DNA of 32,000 nt from Candidatus Iainarchaeum sp. (GCA_043808785.1 JAZDEL010000001.1:182455-214454); one strand, 5' to 3'; counted from the stretch's first letter, positions 889 through 29,916 are shown. Made by a program: numbers and translations. The notes: generated by a model from the letters alone, not told the origin.

Positions 889-1656
889 CTATAAAATATT
901 ATCCCTGCCGCCCCGTTTATAAATGGCTATGAGGGTGGGTTTCCAGTGCGGCGGCCCGCGCCGCGGTTTGTCGGGCAAGCAAAGCCGTTCGCAGCTGCGC
1001 GCGAGCGCACTACTTGCCTTTTTTCCCCCTTTTTCTACAAATATCCCCCTGACTGCATCATATTCATACCCTGGCATCGGAGTCGTTTTCTCGGTAAAAT
1101 ATCCCTTCTCAATCAAACTGCGGACAAAGTTGCGATATTTGGAATAGCGGGCAATTGAAGACTTCTCCTGCCCAATCTTAGTGTGCAAATGCCTCAAGGT
1201 GGCGCGCAACTTTGATGCTTCTTTCATCGGCATATCAATCAATTTTTTTTGTGCCTTGAGGTGGTAATACCCAATAACCTTCCCATAAGGGTTAATAGTC
1301 GCAATATGCCAGACGTTTATCTTTTTGCGCCTGCTCCAGGCATCTCCGACGAATGCCCTTAAATCACCGATGGAAGGTAAAGAGGAAGTGGCGATGCCGC
1401 GAAGTTCCGGCGCTAGAGCGTCCAAAACTGCCTCAGGGTGCGTATGAATATGCGATTTCTCGGTGCCTTTTTTAAACGACCTAATCCCAAACCATGGCAT
1501 TCGAAAAAGAATTCCACGGCGCATTTTGCCCGCAGTTCCCTTGTCTTTGAAGTAGGACATTTCCATAAAGTCTATGAATCGCGTTTCTTCTATCCTCTGT
1601 TTGGCGGTTTTATAGCCTGATGGCAGTCCTTTTGTCTTGCTTGCCTTTATCATCAC
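889..1656 (-). CDS. Hypothetical protein with a JAB/MPN (JAMM)-like HxH...S..D signature
   Basis: This is a 255-aa ORF. The track start is GTG at 1656; an ATG at 1653 is more likely. The motif HIHTHPE-x20-LPSIGD resembles the JAMM HxHx7Sx2D motif but with a longer spacer. A TATA-like element (complement of 1673-1683) lies about 20 nt upstream of the ATG. The stop is 3 nt before the start of the next gene. Confidence 0.45.
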   Translation of the reverse strand: MMIKASKTKGLPSGYKTAKQRIEETRFIDFMEMSYFKDKGTAGKMRRGILFRMPWFGIRSFKKGTEKSHIHTHPEAVLDALAPELRGIATSSLPSIGDLRAFVGDAWSRRKKINVWHIATINPYGKVIGYYHLKAQKKLIDMPMKEASKLRATLRHLHTKIGQEKSSIARYSKYRNFVRSLIEKGYFTEKTTPMPGYEYDAVRGIFVEKGGKKASSALARSCERLCLPDKPRRGPPHWKPTLIAIYKRGGRDNIL

Positions 1657-1698
1657 TATACATTGGGGATCGAAATATAAAAAGATTCCGCAGCGCTT

Positions 1699-1822
1699 CC
1701 CCGCGAACCCCCTCCCCTGAAAACCTTGTCATCCCCAGCCATTACCACCTCCCATTCGGGTTTTTTCTTACGCCTCGGCGTTTTCGGCTTTAAGCCTTTC
1801 CCCCTGATGGGGTCGGTGCGCC
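1699..1822. repeat. Intergenic repeat copy R1 (about 120 nt), paired with 4402-4518
   Basis: A 36-nt core, agccattaccacctcccattcgggttttttcttacg (1737-1772), is identical to 4433-4468. The flanks are similar out to about 1822 and about 4518. The left arm ccccgcgaaccc (1699-1710) is also shared. On the plus strand there is a hairpin plus T6 (cccattcggg-tttttt, 1751-1766). On the minus strand the same core reads GGGAGGTGGTAATGG, which is SD-like followed by an ATG. Confidence 0.85.
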
Positions 1823-1858
1823 TAAAGGCATTGTTCGGGCACAAACCGCCCCGATTTT

Positions 1859-2932
1859 TTACCTGCCGCCTTGGTTTCCGCGCACAGGCACGGAGCGGAC
1901 GTTCGGGAACTCGCGCAGGTCGCGAAGGACGCCTTCAACAATTTTTCGGTTGTTGGCACATGCATAAACAACATTCTGTGCCAGTTTTTTTTCGACAAAC
2001 TGCTTGTCAACTTCAAACTCTTCTGCAGTTTTTTTAGATATTTCTTTAAAAATCTCGCTTTTTTTCTTTTCGTCCAGCCAGCCGTGGGGCGTAATTCTAA
2101 GCCCTTCCTGCAAAATATTTGCGAGCCTCTTCCGCCCATATTCCCCCAATATTTTGGTAAAATCCTTGTATGGCATTTCAGAACCGTGGTCCAACCTAAG
2201 CTGTCGCGCAAAACGCTCTGTCGTGCTTTTTCCGCTGAGAAAATCAAAAGCGTGCCTTAAACGATTAAAATCCTCCCCTGCCCTATCGTATTTTTGCAGT
2301 TCATTAAACAATTCGTGGCTTACGCCATATTGCACGAATACCCTATCTTTGAACTTACCTCCCCCTTGCACACGCATCACAGGGCGCCAGCGTTTTAGTG
2401 ACTCGTGGCTTAATGGAATGTACTCTGAAATGCTTCCGACCTTTCCCGGATGTTGTGCATTGGTGGCGCCAGCAATTTCCTTCCCTTGTTGCCAATCTTT
2501 ATCACCGATTTTGACAAAAAGACCGTGGAACACCTGCACATTTGGCGGAGTTGCCTTACTGTTCTTGAGGGCTGTGTGCTGTAGGCTGAAATAGCAAAGC
2601 CTTTTCGGGTTTTTTATATCATAGAAAGTTATGTTTGTTAAGTTTCCCTTTGGCAGCTTTAACTCCGGGTGTCCGTATGCTTCCCTGAATTTCCCCCAGT
2701 ATTCCTTTGAGCGCGCGGGAATTCCGCCGCGCCTGATGCTCGGCAGCAGGAACTTTTTCACGAACTCGCTCGGCGTGGTGTGCTTCTTCATTGCCGCAAG
2801 AACCATTCTTGACATCTGCGCACCTGTTAGAATAACGGCCCCGAAGTTTAAATATTTGCCCCCTGAAGCCCCCGCGAACCCTCGCCCGCATGCCCCTGCG
2901 CCCCCATCACCTCCCCCGAAGAATTTTTTCAT
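1859..2932 (-). CDS. Hypothetical protein (no recognisable domain); the true start is probably the ATG at 2815
   Basis: This is a 357-aa track ORF. Its first 39 codons are Gly/Ala low-complexity sequence and contain a 27-nt segment identical to intergenic repeat R2. The internal ATG at 2815 is preceded by AGGTG (5-nt spacer) and by a TATA-like element (complement of 2846-2857). Confidence 0.6.
   Translation of the reverse strand: MKKFFGGGDGGAGACGRGFAGASGGKYLNFGAVILTGAQMSRMVLAAMKKHTTPSEFVKKFLLPSIRRGGIPARSKEYWGKFREAYGHPELKLPKGNLTNITFYDIKNPKRLCYFSLQHTALKNSKATPPNVQVFHGLFVKIGDKDWQQGKEIAGATNAQHPGKVGSISEYIPLSHESLKRWRPVMRVQGGGKFKDRVFVQYGVSHELFNELQKYDRAGEDFNRLRHAFDFLSGKSTTERFARQLRLDHGSEMPYKDFTKILGEYGRKRLANILQEGLRITPHGWLDEKKKSEIFKEISKKTAEEFEVDKQFVEKKLAQNVVYACANNRKIVEGVLRDLREFPNVRSVPVRGNQGGR
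2868..2894. repeat. 27-nt exact copy of the left arm of repeat R2
   Basis: The sequence gcccccgcgaaccctcgcccgcatgcc at 2868-2894 is identical to 4402-4428. Confidence 0.9.
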
Positions 2933-2959
2933 ATAGGGGGTTTTCCCGCCAAATGCAAT

Positions 2960-3373
2960 TTAATGCGCGGGAATGCCCATCTCCCGCAGCTGCTTTTTAA
3001 TAAGCTTCTTGGCAGCATCCGTAATCTCCTTCCTCGGCCCGAGTGCAGCAATATCGTATTGGCTGTTCATCTGGCTGGCTGCATTCTTTATTGCGTTTGC
3101 CCCGCCCACCTTGAGGCTTTTGAAGTGCGCATGCAATATCTGCGAGGCGGCGTTGCGGGGAATTCCCAACTGGAAGAGAACATAACCGTGATTCCTTATT
3201 TCTATGCCCGCCCTATTTGCCAGGCCGCAAAGGTTCCGCATGATGTTTTGTTTTTTCTTTTTTTTAAAGAACCTTTTTATTGCACCATTGCGCCTGACGG
3301 GCTTCGGCCTTTGTTTTCTCCTAAGAGGGCCCATGCCCCCGAAGGGGTCCATACCGCTGCGGAACTTCGGCAC
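2960..3373 (-). CDS. Hypothetical, very basic small protein
   Basis: This is a 137-aa ORF with a GTG start in the track and an alternative ATG at 3352. The N-terminal third is Lys/Arg-rich (RRKQRPKPVRRNGAIKRFFKKKKKQ). A TATA-like element (complement of 3405-3412) lies about 31 nt upstream of the GTG. Confidence 0.5.
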   Translation of the reverse strand: MPKFRSGMDPFGGMGPLRRKQRPKPVRRNGAIKRFFKKKKKQNIMRNLCGLANRAGIEIRNHGYVLFQLGIPRNAASQILHAHFKSLKVGGANAIKNAASQMNSQYDIAALGPRKEITDAAKKLIKKQLREMGIPAH

Positions 3374-3525
3374 AAAAACACCATACAGAATGTGCTCTCC
3401 ATGCTTAAATAATTTTGCCCCTGCCCTCGTCGCCCCACTGCGCTTCGATTACCCTCTCCTCGCCCATCGGAAATATACCCCCCGCGAAACCTCCCGCGCG
3501 CACTGCCGCCCCCCCCAATAATTCC

Positions 3526-4302
3526 CTACCTGCCGTTTCGCCCAACTATCAGATGGATGTTGTTGTTCGGCTCCTTGCTGTCTGTTCGCACAGCCCTGCT
3601 CTCAACGGCCTTTGCCCCGAACCTTTCCATGAGCGCGGCAATTTCAGCAGGTTTTGGCGGGCGCGTACGGTATTCCGGGCGATAAACAATAACTATCCCG
3701 CCGCCCGGTTTCAGCCTTGAAAACATGTGGCCGAGGGCCTTTTCTGCATCTTTCACATGGTGAAACGACTCGTTGGAAATTATCAGGTCAACCGATTTTT
3801 CTTTCAGGGGGGATTCCTCGAATGTGCCGGGCACAACGGAAACTTTTTTGCGCCCCCTGGGCCCCAGTATGTTGAGCGCAACCCTCGGCACCTGTTTCGC
3901 CATCTCGCGAAGGGGCTCTACGCCGATAATTTTGCCGATATTCGGAAACTCCTTGGCAAGGAAGCATTCGTGGTGCAGGTTTCCCGCGCCGTAACTTGCG
4001 ACCGTCGCCCCCTTTGGCAGGTTTAATCTGGAAACGCCCTCAACAAGAGCCCTATGGTCAATTATATTGTCTTCCGAACTGTAAATTTTGCCGTACTTCC
4101 TCGCCATGTAGCGGAATCTTTTTCCTTCGTCCTTTCCAGCCTCTGACAGCCGCCTCAGCTTTTCCCTGCTTTTCGGATTAAGCCCGTGGTAAAAGTTGGC
4201 ATATTCATCAAAGGTCATTCTCCAGCTCGGCTTGAACCAGAGCGCAAATTGCCCCAATCTGCCTGGTTTCTGCCCGATTTTTGCCCGCGGATTTCTGCCC
4301 AT
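3526..4302 (-). CDS. Class I SAM-dependent methyltransferase-like protein
   Basis: This is a 258-aa ORF. VASYGAGNLHHE...IIGVEP...VDLIISNESFHHV...LKPGGGIVIV follows the order of methyltransferase motifs I, II and post-II, although motif I is atypical. Confidence 0.6.
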   Translation of the reverse strand: MGRNPRAKIGQKPGRLGQFALWFKPSWRMTFDEYANFYHGLNPKSREKLRRLSEAGKDEGKRFRYMARKYGKIYSSEDNIIDHRALVEGVSRLNLPKGATVASYGAGNLHHECFLAKEFPNIGKIIGVEPLREMAKQVPRVALNILGPRGRKKVSVVPGTFEESPLKEKSVDLIISNESFHHVKDAEKALGHMFSRLKPGGGIVIVYRPEYRTRPPKPAEIAALMERFGAKAVESRAVRTDSKEPNNNIHLIVGRNGR

Positions 4303-4401
4303 AACGCCACATCAGGCTATGCTGCCAATGCAATAAACGGCAATTCAAAATATAAATATTTCATTTTCTGAAACACAGGCGCCTCGGCTGAATTTAATTG
4401 T

Positions 4402-4518
4402 GCCCCCGCGAACCCTCGCCCGCATGCCTAACAGCCATTACCACCTCCCATTCGGGTTTTTTCTTACGACTCGGCGCTTCTCGGCTTAAGCATTTCCCCC
4501 GCTTGGGGTCGGCTCCGC
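4402..4518. repeat. Intergenic repeat copy R2, paired with 1699-1822
   Basis: See R1 for the shared features. The core is at 4433-4468, the plus-strand hairpin plus T6 is at 4447-4462, and the left arm with the box ccccgcgaaccc is at 4404-4415. Confidence 0.85.
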
Positions 4519-4600
4519 TGCACGCCAATTACAGCCGTTCCCGGCAAATGCTCGCCAACAGAACGGGCGCGGAAACTTATTCAAGCCGTTTTTGAACCGC

Positions 4601-5242
4601 TCAAAGCCGTACACTCTTGTTTCCGTGAATTTTCTGGTGTGCTTTATTCCACAGCAGCCACAGCAGGAGATGGGGGGCTTCGGGCGGGGCATCGCTCTGC
4701 TGCAATTTCTCAATCCACCTTTCGGCTGCCGCCTGGGAGCTTACATATGCTTCACCTGCCGTATTCCCCTTCAGCAGCGATTTGACCGCCTGATTTGACA
4801 CGTCCAGGCACGGTTTCGCAAATTCATCCCGCAGAGGGGTTGCGCTCTTCTGGGGATTAATGGGAAAGCCGAACAAATCGCAGTATCCTATGAAAGCAGC
4901 TGCTCCCGACTGCACGCAGTCCCTCCCGAGTTTTGCCGCGGAACTGCACGAGCGGCAGTAAATAACTTTGTCCTTAAGCAGCCGTTCATTTTGCCCGCTC
5001 TTTATCAGGACTTCATTCCTGTGCCCCGCGACCCAATCCTCGCCGCCGTGGCCGTTGAACATTGCCAGTTTCGGGTTTTTTCTGCCGAGAAATTTGCCAA
5101 CCTCCGCGGCGCTTGCCCTTTCCCTCCTGAACTCAAAAACAGCAAGCCCCTTCTGCTTAGCCAGCTCTATAAGTTCGCCAGCCCATGCCGAAAGGTATGC
5201 GGTAGTGTCGTCGTGTTCGGGCAGGGTAATAAAGAATTCCAC
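4601..5242 (-). CDS. Hypothetical protein with a caspase-fold (clan CD)-like His-Gly...Cys signature
   Basis: This is a 213-aa ORF. FNGHGGEDW is followed 31-34 residues later by VIYCRSCSSA. That order and spacing resemble the catalytic dyad of gingipain, legumain and caspase-like peptidases. The call rests on the motif only. Confidence 0.35.
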   Translation of the reverse strand: MEFFITLPEHDDTTAYLSAWAGELIELAKQKGLAVFEFRRERASAAEVGKFLGRKNPKLAMFNGHGGEDWVAGHRNEVLIKSGQNERLLKDKVIYCRSCSSAAKLGRDCVQSGAAAFIGYCDLFGFPINPQKSATPLRDEFAKPCLDVSNQAVKSLLKGNTAGEAYVSSQAAAERWIEKLQQSDAPPEAPHLLLWLLWNKAHQKIHGNKSVRL

Positions 5243-5252
5243 AAAATCGCCC

Positions 5253-5459
5253 CTATTTTGAGAATGAGCGCAGATAGCTTAATTGTATTTCTATTATTTT
5301 TTCCCCAATCTTGCTGCCCTGCCTTACTTCCCCGATAAGTTCTTCTTTGCTGAAGACCCCCATGCTGCCCAGCGAAATTTTCATTGTCGGCGGCATGGTT
5401 TCCAGCCTGGCAATGACCAGTTTTTTTATTTCATCCTTACTTATTGCCATTGCCGCCAC
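5253..5459 (-). CDS. Small hypothetical protein (paralog of 5437-5640)
   Basis: This is a 68-aa ORF. KEELIGEVRQGSKIGEKIIEIQLSYL aligns with VAYREIRGGTALGAKILNKLEALKI of the upstream ORF. The two ORFs overlap by 23 nt. Confidence 0.5.
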   Translation of the reverse strand: MAAMAISKDEIKKLVIARLETMPPTMKISLGSMGVFSKEELIGEVRQGSKIGEKIIEIQLSYLRSFSK

Positions 5460-5640
5460 CTATGATTTTCAGCGCCTCAAGTTTATTCAGTATTTTTGCC
5501 CCCAGCGCAGTCCCGCCCCTTATCTCCCGGTATGCCACATTCCACGTGATGGGCTCGTCATCCACAACCAAAACTATCTCTTTTCTCACATTCAAAGGGA
5601 GGTCGGCATATATCTGCATAAATCTTTCTGCAGCGCCCAT
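5437..5640 (-). CDS. Small hypothetical protein (paralog of 5253-5459)
   Basis: This is a 67-aa ORF. See the paralog entry. A TATA-like GTTTAAATAC lies on the minus strand upstream, at about 5685-5695. Confidence 0.5.
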   Translation of the reverse strand: MGAAERFMQIYADLPLNVRKEIVLVVDDEPITWNVAYREIRGGTALGAKILNKLEALKIIGGGNGNK

Positions 5641-5724
5641 TACACCACGCCCAAACGCATCACGGCAACTTATATTGATATGAAGCAGTATTTAAACCCT
5701 TTTTGCACCCGCCAGCAGGCAGGC

Positions 5725-6363
5725 TCACTTCCCCGCGTTCGCGCCCGCTGGCCATTTCTTCTTTTCCTTAAGCAGCGCGGGCGCCCCCGCGGCAATCACA
5801 TACCCTATTTCGAAGCCCGCCATTGCGACTATGTAAATATACTTCCCGAGCGCAAAGCCCGCGATTATGCACGCGAGGGGGAGCAGCAGCCTGCTCCCGA
5901 GCGCGAACTTCACAAGCGCGTTCGTTTCCTCGCCCCTCTTTTCAGCCCTATCCCCCCTGTCGCTCAGCGCCTCGTCGAGCACCGCACAAAGCAGGAATGC
6001 GGCAAAAAGCGGGAACTCGATTTCGGGAATCCCGAGGAAAGCAAGCGCGGCAATTATTGCAGCAACACCGAACTGGTGCGCCTTGTCGACCTTCCCGTAA
6101 ACGAGCACCGCAGCAACAACCGCAAGCCCCCATGTCATTGTCTCGGTTTTCAGCGAAAGCACGACCCCCAGAAGCAGCCCGTATGCAAGCGCAAGCGCGT
6201 ATGCAACCCTCGCATCCGCCTTAATCCTGCCGTCGGAAAGGTCGTCGGCAAACTTCACAAGCGCGCCCGCGATGAAGGTGAGAAGCACTATATTCGCAAA
6301 AACGAAAAAGCTGTCCGCGAGCGCGGCAAGGGAAGCGATAAAATATGCGATTGTGTATTCCAT
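5725..6363 (-). CDS. Integral membrane protein with Asp-rich motifs (possibly prenyltransferase-like)
   Basis: This is a 212-aa ORF with about 6 hydrophobic segments. It carries FADDLSDGRIKAD and LDEALSDRGD, which resemble DDxxD/DxxxD motifs. The functional assignment is weak. Confidence 0.55.
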   Translation of the reverse strand: MEYTIAYFIASLAALADSFFVFANIVLLTFIAGALVKFADDLSDGRIKADARVAYALALAYGLLLGVVLSLKTETMTWGLAVVAAVLVYGKVDKAHQFGVAAIIAALAFLGIPEIEFPLFAAFLLCAVLDEALSDRGDRAEKRGEETNALVKFALGSRLLLPLACIIAGFALGKYIYIVAMAGFEIGYVIAAGAPALLKEKKKWPAGANAGK

Positions 6364-6432
6364 CCCCGTGCCCCCTTTGCAATCCCCGTCCTTATTCCAC
6401 TATGCGCCGATTGCAATTAAAATATACCCTTT

Positions 6433-6608
6433 CCCCCGTGAGCAGGGTTCGGCGCAATTACGGCGCCCGAAGGCATGCGCAACAACCGCCCCCGTGCCCG
6501 TTCAGGGTTAGGCGCAGCCGCAACAACTCCCTTCCCACGCGCGGGGTTCCGCGCAATCACAATTGCCCCCGCACCCACGTTGCCCCCGCGCGGGTTCGGC
6601 GCAGTTAC
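6433..6608. repeat. Four degenerate direct repeats, CCCCCG[TC]G-N-GGGTT[CA][GC]GCGCA..AC
   Basis: The copies are at about 6433-6461, 6489-6521, 6534-6560 and 6583-6608. The sequence gggttcggcgca[a/g]ttac at 6445-6461 and 6592-6608 differs by 1 nt. The last copy overlaps the dys stop codon (6605-6607). Confidence 0.7.
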
Positions 6609-7558
6609 AGTTCTCCCCTGCCCCTCAGCGCCCCAAGCATCAGCGGAAACGCTATTGTGGCGTCGCAGTTAACCGTAACGCTCCTCCCGTGCTCCTTTAA
6701 TTTTCCCCAGCTTTTCGCCTCGCGCGTCTGCGCGCCGCTCAATGAGCCGTCGAACTCCTGCGCGGTTGTGACATAAACCGCGTAATCCAGCCCCGAGCGC
6801 AGGATGTTCGCGCCGATTATGTGGTGCTTCGCAATGCCGCCGCCGAGCACGATTGCGCCCGTGCGCCCGGCATTAAGCACCAGATTTGCGAGAGTTTTCA
6901 TGTCCCCTGTTACATCGCACGCAAAGTCGGGCTTCCTCTCCTTGAAAAAATACATCTGCAGCCCTATTGCGCCGTCCGTAATGCCCGGGCAGAAAACCGG
7001 TATTCTATTCTTCGCGCACCAGTAAAGGAAACTGCCTTCCGCGGCCTTCCCCGCTTCCCCGCCGAGCTTCGAACCAATGAACCCCGCCAGCCGCGACGGG
7101 TTTGTTGTTTTGTTTTTTTTGTAAACTTCTTCGAGCCAGCCCTGCACCTTCTTCTCAAGAATTTCGAACCCCCTGTCCCGCACGAAAATGTTGCCTATCC
7201 TGTTTATTCCTTTTTTGTGCAGCGCGGCATCGTCCGCGCTGAACTCGCCCATTTCGTAAGGCATGAAGCACTTGATTATGTCGTGGTCTATCGCCCCCGC
7301 GGTTGTGACGATTGCGTGCACCTTCTTCTTCCTGCACAGTTCCGCAATATTTCCCCTCACTCCGCTCGCCACAAGGTTAGCGGTAAACCCGAAAAAAACA
7401 GTGCATTCTTTGTCCGCGAGCATTTCCTGCGTGAGTTCCGTGCCCTGCGCCAAATGCGAAGCCTGGAAGCCCGCGCTGTGCATGGCTTTAACCAAATCGC
7501 CAGCGCCCGCGGAACCGGAACTAAAATCCGTTATTTTTTGGTTTTTGTTTTTCTCCAT
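6605..7558 (-). CDS. dys: Deoxyhypusine synthase
   Basis: This is a 317-aa ORF with characteristic blocks: GFTANLVASGVRG, IVTTAGAIDHD, GINRIGNIFV, CPGITDGAIG, GGGIAKHH and TTAQEFDGSLSGA..REA.SWGK. Confidence 0.92.
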   Translation of the reverse strand: MEKNKNQKITDFSSGSAGAGDLVKAMHSAGFQASHLAQGTELTQEMLADKECTVFFGFTANLVASGVRGNIAELCRKKKVHAIVTTAGAIDHDIIKCFMPYEMGEFSADDAALHKKGINRIGNIFVRDRGFEILEKKVQGWLEEVYKKNKTTNPSRLAGFIGSKLGGEAGKAAEGSFLYWCAKNRIPVFCPGITDGAIGLQMYFFKERKPDFACDVTGDMKTLANLVLNAGRTGAIVLGGGIAKHHIIGANILRSGLDYAVYVTTAQEFDGSLSGAQTREAKSWGKLKEHGRSVTVNCDATIAFPLMLGALRGRGEL

Positions 7559-7571
7559 ACAAGCACCATGC

Positions 7572-10550
7572 CTATTTCACGACCTCAATAGCAAACTCCC
7601 TTTCGAGCAGCTTCTCCTCCCAACGGAACCCCTCTTGTTTTCCGCCCTTTAACTGCACTAGCTTGGTGTTTGTCTCCTTCTCTAGCCTCTTGCCGTATTT
7701 CTTCAGGAACCCGGCATCCGAGCACGCAATCCTGAGTTCCGCTAACTTCTGCGGCATTAACCCTGCCTGCTTCCTCGCATCCTGTATCCGCCTGCGCAGT
7801 TCCATAAGTTCCCACTCCTCGCGCATCTGCGTGTCGGAAGCGATGTTGAGGTAAAGCACAAGGTTGTCGTTCACGGCTTTCTCAGCATACTCACCCTTTG
7901 GCTTACTCCCGCCTTTCTTCTGTTCAGCAACCTCCCCCACGTTAACCATCTTCGCGAGGATGTTTTTTGTTTTTTTCAGTTCCGTGCCTTTCTCCGTGGC
8001 AACAACAAGTTCCTTCAGCGGCCAGCGCAGCCTCAGCTTCTTCTCCTCGCGCAGTGCGAGCGCCTCCTGCGCGAGCGCCATTGCAAGCTCCATCTCCTTC
8101 TCCAGCGCAGCGTCAATCATTTTCTTGTCAACCGCAGGCATTCCCGCTAAGTGCACGGATTCGGGCATCTTCCCGGAGCGCGCGTGCTGGTAAATATATT
8201 CCGTAACATGTGGAGTTATAGGGGAAAGCAAACGCAAAAGCGTGAATATGCAGTTGTTGAGCGTCGCTTCCACCGCCTTCCCGCTTTTGCCCCTTACCCT
8301 CTCCCTAACCAGTTTTATGTAAGTGCGCGACAAATCATCAACAACAAACCTTTCGATAAGCGCCGCCGCCTTCGACGGCACATAGCCGTCGTAAGCGTCA
8401 AGGGCCTCGCGCACGAGCGTGTTCAATTTGCTGAGTATCCACTCATCCTCAACCTCAAGCCCCTTTGCAGGCTTCATCCCCAAATCAAGCGCAAGGTAAA
8501 TGCTCACGTAATTGTAAGTGTTCCAGAATGTGTTGAAAAACCTGCCTATGTCCCTGAACGCCTCCCAGTCGAACGTTATGTCCGCGCCCTTGGAGTTGAG
8601 CACAAGGTAATGCCTGAGGTAATCGACATTATATTTCTCAATAACCTCCATCGGCTGCACAACATTCCCCGCGCTCTTGCTCATCTTCTTCTTGCTCACG
8701 TCGAGCACCATCCCGTGCACCATTACGGCTTCGTAAGGGAGCCTGTCGAAGCATATAATCGAGCATATCGCCTGCGAGTTCCACCATCCCCTGAACTGGT
8801 CAGTTGCTTCGGTGTTGAATTCCGCGGGCCACCACTTCTTGAAAAGGTCCGTGCGCAAAGGGTAATCCAGCGCGCCCCACGAGGAAACGCCCGAATCGAA
8901 CCACACATCCATTACCTCCGGCACGCGCCTCATTTTGCCCGCGCATTTTTTGCATTTGAAAACCACATCATCAATCTCCGGCTTGTGCAGGCCGAGGTTC
9001 TTAGGAAGTTTCGCAAGTTTGCCCAACTCCTTCATGCTCCCCACAACAACGCGCGCGCCGCATTTTTCGTTCTCGCAGACCCAAATAGGCAAGGGCGTTC
9101 CCCAGTACCTCTGCCTCGATACAGGCCAGTCGCCTATGCTTTCGAGCCAGTTCTGCATCCTGTCGCCCATGAATGCGGGCACCCAGTTTACCTTTTTGTT
9201 CAGCGCAAGCGCGCGCTTCTGTATATCGCTTATCTTGAAGAACCACTGCGGAATGCTCACCATGAGCAAAGGCGTCTTGCACCTCCAGCACAGCGGATAA
9301 TCGTGCGTGTAAGGGTGCTTATACACCAGCGCGCCCTTTGCCTCCAAATCCGCAATTATCTGCGCGTCAATTTCCCTCGCCCTTCCGCCCGCGTACTTTC
9401 CCGCCTCCGCGGTAAGTATGCCGTCAATCCCCACAGGGCACAAAGCAGGCAGGCCGTTTTCCTTCCCTACCTCATAATCCTCCCTTCCGTGCCCCGGTGC
9501 CGTGTGGACGAGGCCTGTTCCCGCATCAAGGTTCACATACCTGCCGCCGGGGACAACGCGCCTCATGCCTTTGAGTTCGGGTTTTTTCCCCTGCATTTCC
9601 TCGGCAAGCGCCTCCTCGTATTCCGTTCCCGCGAGCTCGCTCCCTTTCCAAACCTTAACCTCGCGGTATCCCGCCTCGGCGGCATCCATAATCCCCTGCA
9701 GGAGTTCCTTTGCGAGAATCCAGTGTTCGCCGCTGCTGAGTTCGACCTCCGCATATTCATAATTCGGGTGAACCATTATTCCCGTATTGCCCGGCAAAGT
9801 CCAGGGTGTCGTTGTCCATATGATAAAGTAGCGGTTCCCCTGCCCCGAACCGGCGGAACCATGGCCTTTTGCGTTTCGCGCGCCCGAACCATTTTCCTTT
9901 CCCGAACCCCTTTCCTTTATTTTGTATTTCACATAAACCGACATGTCCGAAAGTTTCGTGTATTCGATTTCGTTGTACGCAACCGCGGTCTCGCAGCGCG
10001 GGCAGATGTGAACAGGATATTGCCCGCGGTAAAGCAGGCCCTTCTCCTCAGCGCTCTTGAATGTCCACCACACGGCTTCAATGTACTCGTTGCGCAGCGT
10101 AAGGTAAGGGTTCTCCCAGTCCATCCACACCCCCAGCATTTTATACTCGCCGTTCTGCGTGCCTATGAACCTTGTTGCAAACTCCCTGCACTTCCTTACG
10201 AAATTCCCGACCCCGAACTTCTCTATGTCCTTCCTGTTTTTCGTGCCGAGTTCCTTCTCGATCTGGTATTCGATGGGAACTCCGTGCGTGTCATATCCCG
10301 CCCTGTCAAAAACGTCGAAGCCCCGCATGCGCTTGGCGCGCATCATGCAGTCCTTGAGCACCTTGTTCAGGGCAGTGCCCATGTGTATGTGCCCTGTTGC
10401 ATAAGGAGGGCCGTCCATCATGTACCATTGTTCCTTTTTGCCGCGGTTCTGCTTCCGCGCCTTTTCCGCAATCCCGCGCGCATCCCAGAAGTTCTTAACT
10501 TCCGCCTCCTTTTCGCGGGTGTAGGGCTCGAGGGGTTTTTTCACAGCCAT
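7572..10550 (-). CDS. ileS: Isoleucyl-tRNA synthetase (archaeal/eukaryotic type)
   Basis: This is a 992-aa ORF. It carries PPYATGHIHMGTALNKVLKD (HIGH-region variant), WTTTPWTLPGN, KMSKSAGN and Cys-x2-Cys zinc motifs. A GGAGG sits 9 nt upstream of the ATG. Confidence 0.92.
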   Translation of the reverse strand: MAVKKPLEPYTREKEAEVKNFWDARGIAEKARKQNRGKKEQWYMMDGPPYATGHIHMGTALNKVLKDCMMRAKRMRGFDVFDRAGYDTHGVPIEYQIEKELGTKNRKDIEKFGVGNFVRKCREFATRFIGTQNGEYKMLGVWMDWENPYLTLRNEYIEAVWWTFKSAEEKGLLYRGQYPVHICPRCETAVAYNEIEYTKLSDMSVYVKYKIKERGSGKENGSGARNAKGHGSAGSGQGNRYFIIWTTTPWTLPGNTGIMVHPNYEYAEVELSSGEHWILAKELLQGIMDAAEAGYREVKVWKGSELAGTEYEEALAEEMQGKKPELKGMRRVVPGGRYVNLDAGTGLVHTAPGHGREDYEVGKENGLPALCPVGIDGILTAEAGKYAGGRAREIDAQIIADLEAKGALVYKHPYTHDYPLCWRCKTPLLMVSIPQWFFKISDIQKRALALNKKVNWVPAFMGDRMQNWLESIGDWPVSRQRYWGTPLPIWVCENEKCGARVVVGSMKELGKLAKLPKNLGLHKPEIDDVVFKCKKCAGKMRRVPEVMDVWFDSGVSSWGALDYPLRTDLFKKWWPAEFNTEATDQFRGWWNSQAICSIICFDRLPYEAVMVHGMVLDVSKKKMSKSAGNVVQPMEVIEKYNVDYLRHYLVLNSKGADITFDWEAFRDIGRFFNTFWNTYNYVSIYLALDLGMKPAKGLEVEDEWILSKLNTLVREALDAYDGYVPSKAAALIERFVVDDLSRTYIKLVRERVRGKSGKAVEATLNNCIFTLLRLLSPITPHVTEYIYQHARSGKMPESVHLAGMPAVDKKMIDAALEKEMELAMALAQEALALREEKKLRLRWPLKELVVATEKGTELKKTKNILAKMVNVGEVAEQKKGGSKPKGEYAEKAVNDNLVLYLNIASDTQMREEWELMELRRRIQDARKQAGLMPQKLAELRIACSDAGFLKKYGKRLEKETNTKLVQLKGGKQEGFRWEEKLLEREFAIEVVK

Positions 10551-10568
10551 TCAGGGCGCCTCCGAAAG

Positions 10569-10642
10569 TGGGCGTAGGAGGATTTGAACCCCCGACACTT
10601 GGTGTATAAGACCAATGCTCTGCCAGGCTGAGCTATACGCCC
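10569..10642 (-). tRNA. tRNA-Ile, anticodon UAU
   Basis: The reverse complement reads GGGCGTA-TA-GCTC-AGCCTGGCA-GAGC-A-TTGGT-CTTATAC-ACCAA-GTGTC-GGGGG-TTCAAAT-CCTCC-TACGCCC-A. It has a perfect 7-bp acceptor stem, a 4-bp D stem, a 5-bp anticodon stem and a 5-bp T stem (one G-U pair). The anticodon loop is CT-TAT-AC, the discriminator is A73, and no CCA is encoded. The 3' end lies 18 nt from the ileS ATG. Confidence 0.9.
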
Positions 10643-10874
10643 GAATGCATGAAGAAATGCAATAACTAACTGTGTAAAGAACAAATAAATAGTTTGTGGT
10701 TCCGCCGGCGCGGTTTGGGGTTGTGGCACATTCCGCCAACTGCGGGAAAAACAACAGGCTTGTGGTTCCGCGCAGCGGTTCAGAAGCAGGTGTGCGGGCG
10801 TATTTGATACCGCCCCCGCGTGAGTTCCAAAAATCCCGAAGCAGCCATGTGAACCATTCTCCGCGGCGCGCGCA

Positions 10875-13390: not shown

Positions 13391-13417
13391 GCAAAACTGC
13401 CCTGCTGGCGGCAGTTA
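13391..13417 (-). terminator. Hairpin plus T4 immediately after the thermosome stop
   Basis: The minus strand reads TAA-CTGCC-GCCAGCAG-GGCAG-TTTT. Confidence 0.4.
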
Positions 13418-15067
13418 CATATCCCCCATGTCTCCGCCCATTCCGCCCATGCCTCCGGGCGGCATCCTGGGCCCCGAACTCTTGCTCCCGCCCGCTATGA
13501 TATCGTCGATGCGCAGCAGCATCTCCGCGACTTCTGAACCCGAGGTTATCGCCTGCGTCTTTATGCTCAGCGGCTCTATAACCTTCGCCTCCTTCATGTT
13601 GGAGAACTTCGCATTGTAGACATCGACGCCTATATACTTGCCTTCCTTGCCGGTGTGCTTGTTCCTGAGGCCGACAAGCGTGTCTATCGGGTCCATTCCC
13701 GCGGTTTCCGCGAGCGTGCGGGGAATTACCTCGAGGGTTTCGGCGAACGCCTCTATCGCAAGCTGCTCCCTTCCGCCGAACTTCTTCGCGTATTCCCTGA
13801 GTTTCATCGCGACCTCTATCTCCGAGCTTCCGCCGCCACTGACAATCTTGCCGTCCCTTACCGCCGAGGAGGTTGCGCCTATTGCGTCGTGCACCGCCCT
13901 CTCCGCCTCATCAACAACGTGCTCCGAGCCTCCGCGCACAAGCAGCGAAACAGACTTGGGGTTTGTGCACCCTTCCACAAACACCATTTCGTCGCCCGCA
14001 ATCTTCTTCTCCCTTACAACCGCGGCTTTTCCGAGGTCGGATTCCGAAAGGTCCGCAATCCTGCTCACTACCTTTCCGCCCGTGGCTCTTGCAAGCGCGT
14101 CCATGTCGCTCTTCTTCACGCGCCTTACCGCAACTATCTTTTCCTTCGCAAGGAAGTGCTGTGCCAAATCATCTATCCCTTTCTGTGTTATCAGCACATT
14201 TGCCCCCGAGGCCTTTACCTTTTCAACCATGTCCCTGAGCATCTTCTCTTCCTGGTCTATGAATGCCTGCATCTGGTCGGGAGATGTTATCTCAATCTTC
14301 GCGTCGGTTTCCGTGTCCTTTATCTCGAGCGCGGCGTCAAGCAGTGCAATCTTCGCGCCCTTCACGTTTCTGGGCATTCCCGCGTGCACTATTTCCTTGT
14401 CTATCACGATTCCCTTGACAAGTTCGCTGTCCGCTATGCTTGCTCCAACCTTCTTCTCGACCTTTATATTATCCATATTAATTACTGTCTTGCCGTCTTC
14501 CTTGTCCGCAACCGTCTGTATCGCGTCGACAACCAAATCGGCAAGCTCCCCCGCGCTTTCCGCGCTCTTGCCCGTCATCGAGGTCATTGCAATGTCGCGC
14601 AGCGCCTTCCTGTCGTCGAATGTGATGTCGTCGGAAATTTCCCTGTAGAACTCCTTTGCCTTTTTTGCCGCCTCCCTGTAGCCCTTGATTATTATGCTCG
14701 GGTGTATGTCGTCGTCAAGCAGCCTTTCCGCCTTGTGCAGGAGCTCGCCCGCGATTATGACCGCGGTCGTTGTCCCGTCCCCTACCTCGTCGTCCTGCGT
14801 TTTCGCGACCTCGACCATCATTTTTCCCGCGGGATGGTCGATGCTCATCTCGCCGAGGATTGTCGCGCCGTCGTTGCTTATTGTCACATCCCCGAGCTCG
14901 TCAACAATCATCTTGTCCATTCCCTTCGGTCCAAGCGTGCTCTTCACAGCCTGCGCCACAGCGCGCGCTATGAGTATGTTAATCCTCTGGGCATCCCTGC
15001 CCCTTACCCTTTTGGAACCTTCCGTGAGAAATACCACCGGCTGGTTCATCTGCTGTTCTCCGCCCAT
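13415..15067 (-). CDS. ths: Thermosome subunit (group II chaperonin)
   Basis: The protein reads [41 protein letters not shown] and VGDGTTT, and ends in a [13 protein letters not shown] tail. I chose the ATG at 15067 (GGAGGTG 7 nt upstream) over the track start at 15133. Confidence 0.93.
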
Positions 15068-15136
15068 GTTAAAACACCTCCAAGTGTGAATTTGGCTTAA
15101 CCTTAAATCTGAAAAAACAAACAACAAACCCAAACA

Positions 15137-15239
15137 CGAACCCGAAACGGGTTCGTTGGTTTTTGGTTATTTTTGGGGTTTTCCGGTTTTTTGTTTTTTG
15201 CGTTTTTTCGGGTTTTTTTGCGGGTTTTCAGGGCTTTTT
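15137..15239. promoter_or_regulatory. Perfect 8-bp palindrome plus nine phased T-tracts in the divergent region upstream of the thermosome
   Basis: The palindrome cgaacccg-aaa-cgggttcg lies at 15137-15155. T-tracts of 4-7 nt start at 15160, 15170, 15179, 15187, 15194, 15203, 15213, 15225 and 15235, a spacing of 7-12 nt. Confidence 0.5.
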
Positions 15240-15333
15240 AGCCCTTCCCCGCACTAACCCTGCCATACAATCTTGATGGATATAGGGTTTAAAAACCTTC
15301 CCGCATTTTTGCTGGATGTGGGCGGGATAAGCC

Positions 15334-16344: not shown

Positions 16345-16447
16345 TTGTTTGAAGGCGTGTCAACTTCCCTTTTTGCCCTTCACAGCGCCCTTATACAGCG
16401 CCTCGGTTTCATTCGCAATCTTCCCGATAGTGAACCCGCGCGCCGAA
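16345..16447 (-). pseudogene. Relic 3' fragment of a GT4 glycosyltransferase gene
   Basis: The minus-strand translation ARGFTIGKIANETEALYKGAVKGKKGS-stop matches the C-terminal region ARAFTIEKIAKETEALYKGALRRG of the intact GT at about 17450-17520. It has no upstream coding continuation and lies just after the stop of Fic gene 1. Confidence 0.7.
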
Positions 16448-16465: not shown

Positions 16466-17365
16466 CTAATCCCCTTCAAAATATTTCTCCATCACATACC
16501 TTACAAACGGCCTTTCCTTGCGCTCTATCTGGTATTTGTCGAGGGCGTTGTAATAATTCTCTATATCCTCTATCTTTATGTCAATCATGGGGTAGCCTTT
16601 CTTCCACAAAATCCAGTTCATAAGCAGCCTTGAAACCCTGCTGTTCCCGTCCGTAAAGGGCTGGATGGAGTTTATTTTCAGGTGCGTAAGCGCGGCAAGT
16701 TCCAGCGGGTGCAGCCTCCTGCTGTTTGCCCCGTACCATTTAAAGAATTCCGCAATCTCCTTATCAAGCACGTTCCATTTGGGCGGGACATAGGGCGTGC
16801 CCGCAATCTTCACGTCCCTTTTGAGCCCGCTCCGAAATTTTCCCGTGATTGCATCATCCACACCCGCGAAAAGTATTTTATGCAGTTTTTTCAGGAACCC
16901 CATGCCCAGCCTGCCCCTGAATTTCGTTATAGCCACAACTCCCTTTTCGTGGTTCTCCACTTCCTTCACTGTGCGGAGGCTCCTGAAACCTTTCGGCACT
17001 ATGCCGTCCTTGAGTATGAGCGAGGTCTGCCTCAGGGTTACATTAACACCCGAGAGCTTGCTGCTGTCATAGGTAAACCTTATCATGAACTGCCCGAGGC
17101 GCCTGCTTTTCTCCAAAGGGCTGAGCGATTTCAGCTCCTTTGCATTGCGTTCCTTTATTTCCGCTATGCGTGCCGCTTCCTCCGCCGAGAAGTACCTGTA
17201 CCTGCCTTCCTCGGTCTCCCTGATGAATTCTTCCTTCAGCCGTTCCAGCCTCGCTTTTGGCGGCAGGGTTTTGCCTATGTATCGCGATTCTTTCACTACC
17301 TTTTTCCCTTTCCTTACGGAACGGACGAGGACATAGTAGCCGTTAATCTTCCTTATGAAAACCAT
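16466..17365 (-). CDS. Fic-domain protein with a degenerate active site (Q replaces the catalytic H)
   Basis: This is a 299-aa ORF. The Fic motif reads QPFTDGNSRVSR instead of HPFx[DE]GNGRxxR; I checked the CAG codon on the DNA. The inhibitory-helix motif reads SSKLSG instead of SxxxEG. A TATA element (complement of 17389-17396) lies 23 nt upstream of the ATG and overlaps the GT stop codon. Confidence 0.85.
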   Translation of the reverse strand: MVFIRKINGYYVLVRSVRKGKKVVKESRYIGKTLPPKARLERLKEEFIRETEEGRYRYFSAEEAARIAEIKERNAKELKSLSPLEKSRRLGQFMIRFTYDSSKLSGVNVTLRQTSLILKDGIVPKGFRSLRTVKEVENHEKGVVAITKFRGRLGMGFLKKLHKILFAGVDDAITGKFRSGLKRDVKIAGTPYVPPKWNVLDKEIAEFFKWYGANSRRLHPLELAALTHLKINSIQPFTDGNSRVSRLLMNWILWKKGYPMIDIKIEDIENYYNALDKYQIERKERPFVRYVMEKYFEGD

Positions 17366-17391: not shown

Positions 17392-18699
17392 TTAAACGTT
17401 TCGTTTATGCACCACATTTGCGCCGTGCCCTTCCTCAGCCCTATTTCCCCTTCGCAGCGCCCCTTTGTACAGCGCCTCCGTCTCCTTCGCAATCTTTTCG
17501 ATTGTGAACGCGCGCGCGGTTTTCAACGCGGCTTTCCCCATTTTTTCCCTCAGCGCCTCTGAGTGGATTAATTTTTCCATCTTGTCAGCAAGCTCCGCAT
17601 GGTCGAACGGCTTGAAAAGGAACCCGTTCACCCCGTCCTTTATTGAATCAGGAATTGCAAGGCAGTCCGCCCCGATGCAGGGTAAGCCTGTTGCCATCGA
17701 TTCCATGATAGTTAACCCTTGTGTCTCGATTGTAGATGCAGTTACAAAAAAATCATGCCCCGCAACATGCTTCGCAAGCGCGTCGCTCTTCATCGGCGCG
17801 TTGAAAACAACATTCTTCCCCAAACCCTCCGCATGCGCGGTTTTTTTTATTTTCTCGAGCGCAGGCCCCGAGCCCGTGATTGTTAATTCCGCATCGACAC
17901 CGCGCGCCCGCAGCTCCCTCAGCGCGAAAAGCAGGAACTCTATGTTCTTCTCATAACCTATCCTGCCGAAGTAAATCATTTTCGCCTTTCCCGTGCGCGA
18001 AAGCGCGTATTTTTTCTTCGCGAATTTGTTGGTCCGCCCCTTGCGCGCGAGCGCGTATTTTTTCTTCGCGAATTTGTTGAACCTTTTGAAATCAATCGCG
18101 TTCGCCAGCACGCGCACATGTTTAATGCCCTTTTTTTCCAGCTCGCGCTTCATTGTGTTGCTGGGCACGGTTACAATATCGCACTTGTTGTAGAACCTCC
18201 TCACGTACGCCCATGCAAGGTGCTTTGCAGGTGCGGTTTTCCTGATGAGCGGCAGGGGGAGATACATAAGGAACTCGGGAATGTGCGTGTGGTACGTGCC
18301 AATCACGGGCACCCTGTGCCTTTTCCCGTATCTCCTGCCCAGCACCCCTATCCCGAAAGGGGTTTGCACATGCACAACTTCGGGCTTGAATTTTTTGAGT
18401 TCGCTGTTCAGCCTTCCCGAACGCAAATCAGTAATCCTGTAATCTTTGTAGGTAGGCAATGCAATTGAGGGTAAGCAAACAACCGTTGTTCCTCCAGCAC
18501 TCCCGCCCCCGCGCTTCCCCTTGCTGCGGGGCGCGGTTGCGCGCTTCTCCTCCTTCACCTCGAACTTCAGCCCTGTTGCAGGGGCGACAATAAGTATCTC
18601 ATTCCCCATTTCCGCGAGCGCCGTGGCTGTATTTTCAATCTGCGTAACCACGCCGTTTATCTGGGGCTTGTAAGTGTCCGTGAATAGCGCAATTTTCAT
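17392..18699 (-). CDS. GT4-family (GT-B fold) glycosyltransferase
   Basis: The N-terminus is MKIALFTDTYKPQINGV and the C-terminus has an E-x7-E region (ETQGLTIMESMATGLPCI). I chose the ATG at 18699 over the TTG at 18735. The gene contains an in-frame 48-nt tandem duplication. Confidence 0.85.
   Translation of the reverse strand: MKIALFTDTYKPQINGVVTQIENTATALAEMGNEILIVAPATGLKFEVKEEKRATAPRSKGKRGGGSAGGTTVVCLPSIALPTYKDYRITDLRSGRLNSELKKFKPEVVHVQTPFGIGVLGRRYGKRHRVPVIGTYHTHIPEFLMYLPLPLIRKTAPAKHLAWAYVRRFYNKCDIVTVPSNTMKRELEKKGIKHVRVLANAIDFKRFNKFAKKKYALARKGRTNKFAKKKYALSRTGKAKMIYFGRIGYEKNIEFLLFALRELRARGVDAELTITGSGPALEKIKKTAHAEGLGKNVVFNAPMKSDALAKHVAGHDFFVTASTIETQGLTIMESMATGLPCIGADCLAIPDSIKDGVNGFLFKPFDHAELADKMEKLIHSEALREKMGKAALKTARAFTIEKIAKETEALYKGALRRGNRAEEGHGANVVHKRNV
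18003..18079. repeat. In-frame 48-nt tandem duplication inside the GT4 gene
   Basis: The sequence gcgcgtattttttcttcgcgaatttgttg occurs at 18003-18031 and again at 18051-18079. The protein therefore reads NKFAKKKYALARKGRT / NKFAKKKYALSRTGKA. Confidence 0.9.
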
Positions 18700-18738: not shown

Positions 18739-19344
18739 TCATCGCCCTCCTCCCCTTCCGTGGTAATTGAACCTCATCGAACTTATATCTTCCCTGTTTA
18801 TTTCAAACATCCTCGCCCCGCGCTTTGTCTTGCATTTGTACCTGCATGAGGGCGTGAAATACCCGTGGAAATTTTTGGAGAAAAACGCCTCGTCCCACAC
18901 TTCATCAAAAACCGCGCCCGCTTTCGGCTCTATAATTATCATCTTCCCGCCTTTCTTAAGCACCCTCGCGGTTTCGCGCATCGCCCTTGCGTGCTTTGCC
19001 CTTGGTATGTGGTGCAGCACATGCGCAAAAACAGCGACATCAAAACTTTCATCCGCGAAAGGCATCTTCTCCGCGCCCGCGCCGAACACGGGGTAAGGGA
19101 GCATTGCCGCGCGCCCTTTCACAAGCGCCTTGTCCGCCTCTATCCCGCGCACGGAATAGCCTTTCCTCGCAAGGCGCTCGCCTGTCAATCCCAGGCCGCA
19201 CCCCACATCGAGAACCTTGCACCCGCGCGGCAGCATGCGCATGATTTCGGAAAGGTTCCTCGAGCGTGCGTGCAGCATTATGCACGCCTCCTTTGCGTGC
19301 GCATTTTTGAGCATTCCCAAAACAAACTTGTCGACAGCATTCAT
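18739..19344 (-). CDS. Class I SAM-dependent methyltransferase
   Basis: It carries VLDVGCGLGLTG (motif I), FDVAVFAHVLHHI and LKKGGKMIIIEP. Its ATG overlaps the Fic2 stop codon (ATGA at 19341-19344). Confidence 0.85.
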   Translation of the reverse strand: MNAVDKFVLGMLKNAHAKEACIMLHARSRNLSEIMRMLPRGCKVLDVGCGLGLTGERLARKGYSVRGIEADKALVKGRAAMLPYPVFGAGAEKMPFADESFDVAVFAHVLHHIPRAKHARAMRETARVLKKGGKMIIIEPKAGAVFDEVWDEAFFSKNFHGYFTPSCRYKCKTKRGARMFEINREDISSMRFNYHGRGGGR

Positions 19345-29731: not shown

Positions 29732-29916
29732 GTGTTCACCTCGCTTAAAAAACGTAGTTAATGGCTAAAAAAGCCGTATATTATTATTCCACCGTCGGTT
29801 TTTAATGCCTTGCTGTGAAGAAATTGCGCAGGGGTTATGTATAATTTACCCTGCAACAGGTGCCACTCCATTGCCAATAGCCTTAAATATGCCCCGAGTG
29901 TTAATATTTGCTAATT

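Follow-up and report, generated by a model that had tools for sequence, protein, structure and literature searches.

The 32,000-nucleotide (nt) stretch of DNA from Candidatus Iainarchaeum sp. analyzed here (GCA_043808785.1 JAZDEL010000001.1:182455-214454, referred to throughout as the window) contains a hypervariable island on its minus strand at positions 950-5724, delimited by the points at which synteny with a close relative, L129 (Logan SRR22387960), ends. The island lies between the gene of a 212-amino acid (aa) membrane protein (5725-6363) and the promoter of a 221-aa gene (~914-949). Its genes, all on the minus strand and given in the order of transcription, encode proteins of 67, 68, and 213 aa (the last at 4601-5242), an S-adenosylmethionine (SAM)-dependent methyltransferase (3526-4302; Methyltransf_11, E=8e-12; PADLOC mad2, E=1.5e-14), a basic protein of 137 aa (2960-3373), and proteins of 318 aa (1859-2815) and 254 aa (889-1653). 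Four consecutive gaps between these genes carry a 12-nt sequence, GGGTTCGCGGGG on the minus strand and CCCCGCGAACCC on the plus strand, which we call the box. An earlier note, made from the sequence of the window alone, had proposed that the box is a transcription-factor site that wires the island into a single regulon. The analysis presented here does not support that proposal; what it supports well is that the box forms the conserved core at the 3' end of an intergenic repeat, 45-150 nt long, that is modular and specific to this lineage.

Apart from the methyltransferase, none of the five genes that flank the boxes gave a credible match in Pfam, NCBIfam, PHROGs, or PADLOC. Sequence searches of the PDB with four island proteins returned nothing credible, and no DNA-binding domain was detected in any island protein. 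AlphaFold2 (AF2) models were of low confidence, with predicted local distance difference test (pLDDT) values of 51 for the 137-aa protein and 48 for the 318-aa protein. Two patterns were noticed by eye, each in a protein without a match to a profile or a solved structure: a JAMM-like HxHxH...S..D pattern in the 254-aa protein (889-1653) and a caspase-like HG...C pattern in the 213-aa protein (4601-5242). Together with the methyltransferase and its mad2 match, they make the island look like a set of conflict-system genes.

The box and the repeat that it terminates

A motif scan located three exact copies of the box, A (1699-1710), B (2870-2881), and D (4404-4415), and one copy with a single mismatch, C (GGTTTCGCGGGG, 3480-3491), all on the minus strand. 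No fifth copy was found at ≤1 mismatch on either strand of the window. The rescan thus returned the same three exact 12-mers and one variant that the earlier note had reported, and agreed with it that the 12-mer occurs nowhere else in the window. The four matches at ≤1 mismatch compare with 0.30 expected, and four or more were reached in none of 100 dinucleotide shuffles; for GGKTTCGCGGGG, four occurrences were observed against 0.02 expected. The box is non-palindromic, and no clear internal repeat was seen within it. As had also been described, all four copies are intergenic, share the orientation of the flanking minus-strand genes, and stand upstream of four successive genes in consecutive gaps. 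In the case of box B, this description was conditional on the true start of a 357-aa open reading frame (ORF) at 1859-2932, which the earlier note had suggested might be at 2815. The NCBI model P0121 and two homologues that likewise begin MSRM support ATG 2815 as the real start, which gives a protein of 318 aa. Box B is therefore intergenic, and the 357-aa ORF, read from ATG 2932, was rejected as a gene, as it over-extends through the repeat to which box B belongs.

That repeat, referred to here as the element, was delimited by repeat finding, alignment, and an nhmmer profile, using five copies from two genomes: four in the window, named A to D after their boxes, and one in L129. Read on the gene strand, the element opens with the module TTTAGGCGCA-CCGACCCC-loop-GGGGGAAAGG, which is a GCGC-CCGA(C/A)CCC-loop-GGGGG mini-hairpin. 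This is followed by GCTTAAGC, by an A-run, GTAAGAAAAAA (GAAAAAA), and then by GGGAGGTG(G/A)T, a variable stretch, and finally GCATGCGGGCGA-GGGTTCGCGGGG. Profile E-values range from 1e-25 to 1e-33 for elements A, B, and D and the L129 copy. Element A (1691-1838, minus strand, E=7e-30) is full length, begins 20 nt past the stop codon of the 318-aa gene, and has box A as its end. Element D (4396-4534, minus strand, E=7e-33) is likewise full length and begins 66 nt past the stop codon of the 213-aa gene; together, A and D form repeat family D7, in which they align over 81 nt at 86% identity. Element B (2864-2971, minus strand, E=3e-25, also recovered by blastn) is truncated at its 5' end, which overlaps the final codons of the 137-aa gene, and is the window copy nearest to that of L129 (80% identity over 84 nt, blastn). 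Element C (~3479-3524, minus strand) is short and degenerate. Its nhmmer match is weak (3479-3504, E=0.27), its extent to 3524 was judged by eye, and it contains only a GGGA-ATTATT-GGGGG block and the box, beginning just past the stop codon of the methyltransferase gene (3526-3528). A second repeat family, D6, joins element C to B and D.

The copies share a common 3' end and vary in their 5' extent, with lengths of ~148 nt (A), ~139 nt (D), ~108 nt (B), and ~45 nt (C), and in the window they start 0-66 nt from the upstream stop codon. Mean pairwise identity is 0.92 in the box versus 0.21-0.26 across the next 40 nt; 3' of the box, similarity is at the level of chance and the next gene's own promoter follows. 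The box is the sole segment retained in all five copies, including the degenerate C. Elements B and D have an identical 27-nt stretch that includes the box, GGCATGCGGGCGAGGGTTCGCGGGGGC. The copies are mosaic: the 5' part of D groups with A, and its sequence near the box groups with B, which implies exchange between copies. Because the homology spans a repeat of 45-150 nt, the box copies are related by descent and are not independently kept operators. No further elements were found in the more than 20 other intergenic gaps of the window.

The element was also examined for structure and coding potential. With Rfam, only a tRNA-Ile gene scored above threshold in the window, and nothing credible was found at 1600-4650. 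Folding of the element as DNA and as RNA, on both strands, gave z-scores of +1.2 to -2.9, mostly close to those of shuffled sequence, and no end-to-end pairing was found except for a 7-bp pairing in copy C. The RNAalifold consensus of -6.2 kcal/mol, with a covariation term of -0.3, is not that of a conserved structured RNA. A Shine-Dalgarno (SD)-like block, GGGAGGTGGT, is present in A (1744-1753) and is identical in D (4440-4449), and the corresponding block in B is GGGAGGTGAT (2906-2915), all on the minus strand. In A, B, D, and the L129 copy, GGGAGGTG is followed by an ATG and a frame that stays open through the box, for 28, 19, 14, and 49 codons, respectively. The resulting short ORF in A, which follows the SD-like block, lies at 1656-1742 (28 aa), and its counterparts in B and D lie at 2848-2907 (19 aa) and 4394-4438 (14 aa), again on the minus strand; neither the lengths nor the C-termini of the peptides are conserved. 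In addition, element B (2859-2917, minus strand) contains the strongest G-quadruplex sequence of the window, with seven G-runs, loops of ≤7 nt, and a G4Hunter score of 2.4, and accounts for one of only two canonical G-quadruplex motifs in the 32 kb. A G-quadruplex was rejected as a common feature of the copies, as the high potential of B is not matched by A and C, where it is moderate, or by D, where it is low (G4Hunter score 1.5) and a canonical motif is absent.

Gene contexts of the element and promoters of the island genes

The flanks of the island are conserved in L129, whose deoxyhypusine synthase is 88% identical to that of the window. The left flank has the same synthetase, deoxyhypusine synthase, and 212-aa membrane protein (86% amino-acid identity), and the right end matches window positions 914-949, where the 221-aa gene has its promoter region (86% over 36 nt). 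The genes enclosed by these flanks are entirely different, none of those in L129 (RHH, PIN, and 195 aa) being similar to the island genes of the window, and the earlier description of the region as an accessory island is thereby borne out. The sole similarity detected inside the L129 island is one co-oriented element located between two genes (L129:5326-5460). This copy begins 5 nt past the stop codon of the PIN gene, and its box reads GGTTTCGCGGGC. Compared with element B, it is identical at 14/14 positions of ATGAAAAAATTCTT and 19/19 of GGGGGAGGTGATGGGGGCG, and at 10/12 positions of the box. The L129 genes themselves (L129:4693-6179) comprise an RHH gene, a PIN_2 toxin gene, and the gene of a 195-aa protein that matches RelA/SpoT weakly (E=1.7e-4, short of the Pfam threshold), and may represent a toxin-antitoxin pair adjoining a small alarmone-synthetase-like toxin.

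More distant relatives lack the element. In L130 and L135, whose deoxyhypusine synthases are 73-76% identical, the gene order differs and no element was found. Homologues of the 318-aa gene are present in L133 and L134 (54% identity), in other contexts and without the element; a TATA box at a similar distance and the start codon are kept, and similarity to the window starts at about the TATA box of the 318-aa gene. The gene unit can therefore exist without the element. The pattern GGGAGGTG-N(15-45)-GGGTTCGCGGGG, scanned against the contigs of a genome collection, gave no archaeal match among the matches listed (at least 119 loci, being chance matches in GC-rich bacteria). A three-part pattern scan of metagenomes gave two chance matches only, pattern scans of viral contigs gave chance matches or none, and no phage or plasmid sequence matched element D in blastn. 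A phmmer search of 1.8 billion representatives with the 62-aa ORF over element A returned two unrelated-looking matches, a repeat-rich 544-aa protein and a 190-aa tandem-repeat translation. A text search of the literature for the box sequence found nothing relevant and no description of the motif. As far as tested, the element is confined to a narrow lineage and is joined to different genes in different genomes.

The deoxyhypusine synthase of the window is 100% identical to an NCBI protein (P0001) of a Candidatus Diapherotrites metagenome-assembled genome, which makes the host a DPANN archaeon, and TATA-type promoters are expected. The genes of the window have TATA boxes of the type (G)GGTTTAAATA or GGGTATATTTTA at 25-55 nt before their start codons, and SD sites (GGTGAT, GAGGTGA) at ~4-7 nt before their starts. 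The earlier note had assigned an A/T-rich, TATA-like stretch to each box; all four stretches exist (1673-1684, 2846-2857, 3469-3479, and 4391-4400), but only the first two are clearly working TATA boxes. These are the TATA box of the 254-aa gene (1674-1684), which lies 14 nt past box A and 26 nt before ATG 1653 in a leaderless geometry, and that of the 318-aa gene (2846-2857), which lies 12 nt past box B and ~36 nt before its ATG. The stretches by boxes C and D (3469-3479 and 4391-4400) are weaker or badly placed. The likely TATA box of the 137-aa gene is at 3403-3416, 63 nt past box C and ~30 nt before GTG 3373, with 3469-3479 as a second candidate. For the methyltransferase gene, the likely TATA box is at 4347-4361, 42 nt past box D and ~52 nt before the ATG, and 4391-4400 is a weaker match. 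All of these are on the minus strand. In L129, a TATA box is found 3' of the element at L129:5510-5518, 57 nt past the box.

Related arrays and other sequences in the window

A second, related repeat array is located on the minus strand at 6445-6603, in the spacer between the deoxyhypusine synthase gene (6605-7558) and the 212-aa gene. It consists of four TGCGC[CG][GT]AACCC copies, at 6445, 6505, 6544, and 6592, each of which is followed by a CCC-loop-GGG mini-hairpin. At ≤2 mismatches, this motif occurs 18 times in the window against 4.2 expected. In alignment, the array units correspond to the 5' module of A, D, and the L129 copy, and the ~170-nt segment that bears the array is missing from the orthologous spacer of L129. 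Because the array resembles the element and is absent from L129, the repeat family can be described as modular and variable between close relatives. The array units (6430-6604) also resemble a local promoter-proximal sequence, TAATTGCG..CGGAAC, and the array may have arisen by local tandem duplication.

A perfect palindrome, CGAACCCG-TTT-CGGGTTCG, is found at 15137-15155, beside the thermosome subunit gene (13415-15133) and ~70 nt upstream of the thermosome ATG at 15066, which is preceded at 7 nt by the SD sequence GGAGGTG. The surrounding stretch is low in GC (42%), with long A-rich runs to one side of the palindrome and T-rich runs to the other (flanks 15095-15260), and the palindrome has the heptamer GGGTTCG in common with the box. 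It has the look of a hairpin terminator acting in both directions, or of the end of a small transcript rich in A. A transcription-factor half-site common to the box and the thermosome promoter was considered and rejected, as the CGAACCC palindrome, flanked by A- and T-runs, has the appearance of a terminator.

Among the remaining features of the window are a class I aminoacyl-tRNA synthetase gene (7572-10550) and, directly upstream of it, the tRNA-Ile gene (anticodon TAT, 10568-10642, minus strand), whose upstream spacer (10695-10775) contains two GCGGAACCACAA motifs. An Ssb-like OB-fold protein is also encoded. A 59-nt direct repeat (83%; 16385-16443 and 17459-17517) is found near the 3' ends of two neighboring genes, and a 48-nt tandem duplication (93%; 17990-18079) is located within a glycosyltransferase gene; the stretch with these repeats includes two Fic-domain genes (16466-17365 and 19341-20354). 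Finally, a 643-aa ORF (29908-31839, plus strand) with DNA repeats of ~69-nt periodicity encodes a NosD/right-handed beta-helix repeat protein.

Possible roles of the repeat

Of the explanations considered, we tentatively favor one in which the repeats are junction or attachment-type sequences where promoter-plus-gene units are inserted or exchanged. Judged from sequence, this is the most plausible reading, because there is one copy per junction in uniform orientation, because the copies have a common 3' end with a sharp loss of homology and a variable 5' extent, and because mosaic copies occur and the element stands between unrelated genes in L129. The occurrence of the 318-aa gene unit without the element in L133 and L134 and the absence of the related 6445-6603 array from L129 also count in its favor. 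In this scheme, self-contained units made up of a promoter, a gene, and a 3' repeat would be inserted or exchanged by recombination at or beside the box. The recombination could be site-specific, carried out by some recombinase, or driven by homology between the copies; either route would yield one repeat per junction and a uniform orientation. Any effect on the transcription of neighboring genes would be secondary.

Several observations weigh against such a role. Pfam, NCBIfam, PHROGs, and PADLOC revealed no recombinase or transposase, either in the island or among the other scanned ORFs of the window. The left edge of the island, between the 212-aa gene and the first island gene, is without an element in both genomes, and island turnover therefore does not require the element. 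The last island gene (254 aa in the window, 195 aa in L129) also has no element on its 3' side. The sample consists of five copies from two genomes, with an element survey of the 32-kb window, and within these five copies and two genomes no excision or insertion polymorphism with breakpoints at the box was seen.

Among the closest known counterparts of such junction repeats are the attC sites of integrons. Both attC sites and clusters of attC sites lacking integrase (CALINs) have been reported in archaeal metagenome-assembled genomes, and the integrons of archaea are reported to share the structure and components of bacterial cassette arrays (PMC9668308). As in an attC array or CALIN, one co-oriented repeat follows a short accessory gene at four junctions of the island, which is a variable array; the repeats within the array are alike and variable in length, and their homology ends sharply at the 3' edge, where the next cassette begins. 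As in a CALIN, no integrase adjoins the array, and none was detected in the 32-kb window. However, the element does not contain the RYYYAAC (R'') and GTTRRRY (R') cores of attC. Its 3' end is GTTCGCG or GTTTCGC instead of GTTRRRY, and the candidate 5' partners CCCGAAC, GCGAAAC, and CGGGAAC keep only the AAC of RYYYAAC. It also forms no long imperfect end-pairing hairpin, and, unlike attC arrays, the island has cassettes that carry their own TATA promoters and a last gene without a 3' repeat. That recombination in a non-canonical, integron-like cassette system of DPANN archaea takes place at the element, with GGGTTCGCGGGG as the core of the site, seems to us quite improbable. In such a system, a recombinase whose gene lies elsewhere in the genome would capture and shuffle single-gene cassettes, each with its promoter, and would act on sites that resemble attC in neither sequence nor hairpin architecture.

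Serial site-specific integration, as in tandem islands at tRNA genes, leaves direct-repeat att sites. The elements resemble such sites in being co-oriented, one per junction, with one common end and the other variable. Unlike them, the element is not part of a tRNA gene or of any recognizable gene, the units are single genes, and no integrase gene was detected in any unit. An origin as a tRNA fragment or att site of a tRNA gene was rejected for want of any tRNA-like match in the region.

A selfish or neutral short repeat, such as a miniature inverted-repeat transposable element (MITE), a repetitive extragenic palindromic (REP) sequence, or a bacterial interspersed mosaic element (BIME), or else a local duplication, is possible, if on the unlikely side. 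On this account, GC-rich mini-hairpin modules would spread or duplicate in the intergenic DNA of the lineage with no cassette or regulatory role. The modular build of the element is consistent with this, with CCC(C)-loop-GGG(G) hairpins in which loops vary and stems stay, as are the related four-copy array at 6445-6603, which the orthologous spacer of L129 lacks, a weak inverted similarity between the ends of the element (5' CCGA(C/A)CCC versus 3' GGGTTCG), and the restriction of the element to two close genomes. REP/BIME, enterobacterial repetitive intergenic consensus (ERIC), and the Correia elements of Neisseria are likewise short (~30-150 nt), GC-rich, modular, mosaic, and intergenic, often lie just past stop codons, and vary between close relatives; they can also carry promoter or RNA-processing signals. 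Those families, however, are dispersed in tens to hundreds of copies in both orientations and have clear palindromes or terminal inverted repeats, with target duplications as well in the case of Correia, whereas the element copies are clustered and co-oriented within the window and their palindromic character is weak. Random insertion would be unlikely to place a single copy at each of four successive junctions, with no others found in the remaining gaps of the window, and to give 5/5 copies one orientation. No target-site duplications were seen at the ends of the element, orthologous empty sites do not exist because the genes of the two islands differ, and no transposase or RAYT-like gene was found in the window. 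The terminal inverted match is just 7-8 nt, GC-rich, and by a hand estimate no better than chance; the GCGAAAC/GTTTCGC match in copy C is the sole one that a hand calculation placed above chance.

A cis-regulatory role for the box, which is what the earlier note had proposed, appears unlikely. Here, a DNA-binding protein, possibly the basic 137-aa protein of the island, would bind the box and co-regulate the island genes, and the longer homology would be no more than a trace of the way in which the site was copied. Known archaeal regulon motifs upstream of the B recognition element (BRE) and TATA box include the Thermococcales glycolytic motif bound by TrmBL1 and the Sulfolobus ara-box, and the box is like these in being a short conserved motif in one orientation upstream of the TATA boxes of several genes. 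Its retention as the only segment common to all copies, even in the degenerate C, agrees with such a role, as does the gap of 12-14 nt at A and B, which is compatible with an archaeal upstream activator site. In C, moreover, the G-run that closes the box directly adjoins GGGTATATTT, a TATA-like sequence similar to the promoter of the 212-aa gene. The known regulon motifs just named, however, are conserved alone, without flanking homology, in constrained positions, and with orthologous genes across species. By comparison, the box ends a repeat of 45-150 nt, with homology that extends up to ~130 nt 5' of it and would be needless for a transcription-factor site. There is no fixed promoter geometry, since the distances to the likely working TATA boxes (14, 12, 63, 42, and 57 nt) span 12-63 nt, a range wider than the constrained distance expected of an operator. 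Between the two genomes, GGGGGAGGTGATGGGGGCG (19/19) outdoes the box (10/12) in conservation, and the SD-like block likewise is better conserved. A tie to orthologous genes is also missing: the L129 element stands between unrelated genes, and the homologues of the 318-aa gene on two other contigs retain the TATA box and start codon and have no box. The non-palindromic sequence of the box, the lack of a DNA-binding domain in the island proteins, and the unreliable AF2 model of the 137-aa protein (pLDDT 51) count against this explanation as well.

Least probable, and in our view very doubtful, is that the element acts as an expression module that provides a ribosome-binding site and a short upstream ORF (M-[AG]-x(n)-G-x-SRG), or a small RNA, and so affects the translation or stability of read-through transcripts from the upstream gene. 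The succession of GGGAGGTG, ATG, and open frame in A, B, D, and the L129 copy would fit this proposal, as would indels between copies that are multiples of three in the short-ORF stretch, the stop of the short ORF in A 2 nt before the ATG of the 254-aa gene, and a T6 run, which is an archaeal termination signal, on the opposite strand of each full copy. However, the SD-like block is separated from the ATG by only 3 nt in A and D and overlaps it (zero spacing) in B and L129, compared with ~4-7 nt for the genes of the window. The peptides are conserved in neither length nor C-terminus, neither the SD-like block nor the ATG survives in copy C, and each downstream gene has a TATA box of its own between the box and its start codon. 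An RNA-based function is further disfavored by the lack of an Rfam match, by folding close to that of shuffled sequence, and by an RNAalifold consensus of about -6 kcal/mol with essentially no covariation. Two remaining candidates were rejected outright: a conserved protein-coding repeat, as the box, translated as GSRG in A and D, becomes GFAG in the long ORF that covers B, and as the L129 copy is frame-shifted relative to A, and the repeat of a diversity-generating retroelement, as A and D do not differ specifically at adenines and no domain of a reverse transcriptase was detected.

Repeats at cassette junctions and short repeats between genes are both familiar classes of sequence; the present element would be new, narrowly distributed, and a member of no tested family. 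If it proves to be only a lineage-specific intergenic repeat, it is an ordinary feature, and the analysis still corrects a gene start (2815, not 2932) and warns against taking repeated DNA for a regulon motif. If, on the other hand, the repeats do serve as junctions at which units are inserted or exchanged, they would provide a handle on the turnover of accessory and conflict genes, here those of a methyltransferase, a JAMM-like protein, a caspase-like protein, and toxin-antitoxin systems, at a fixed hot spot in very small DPANN genomes, and would point to a form of cassette exchange that is invisible to standard integron finders.

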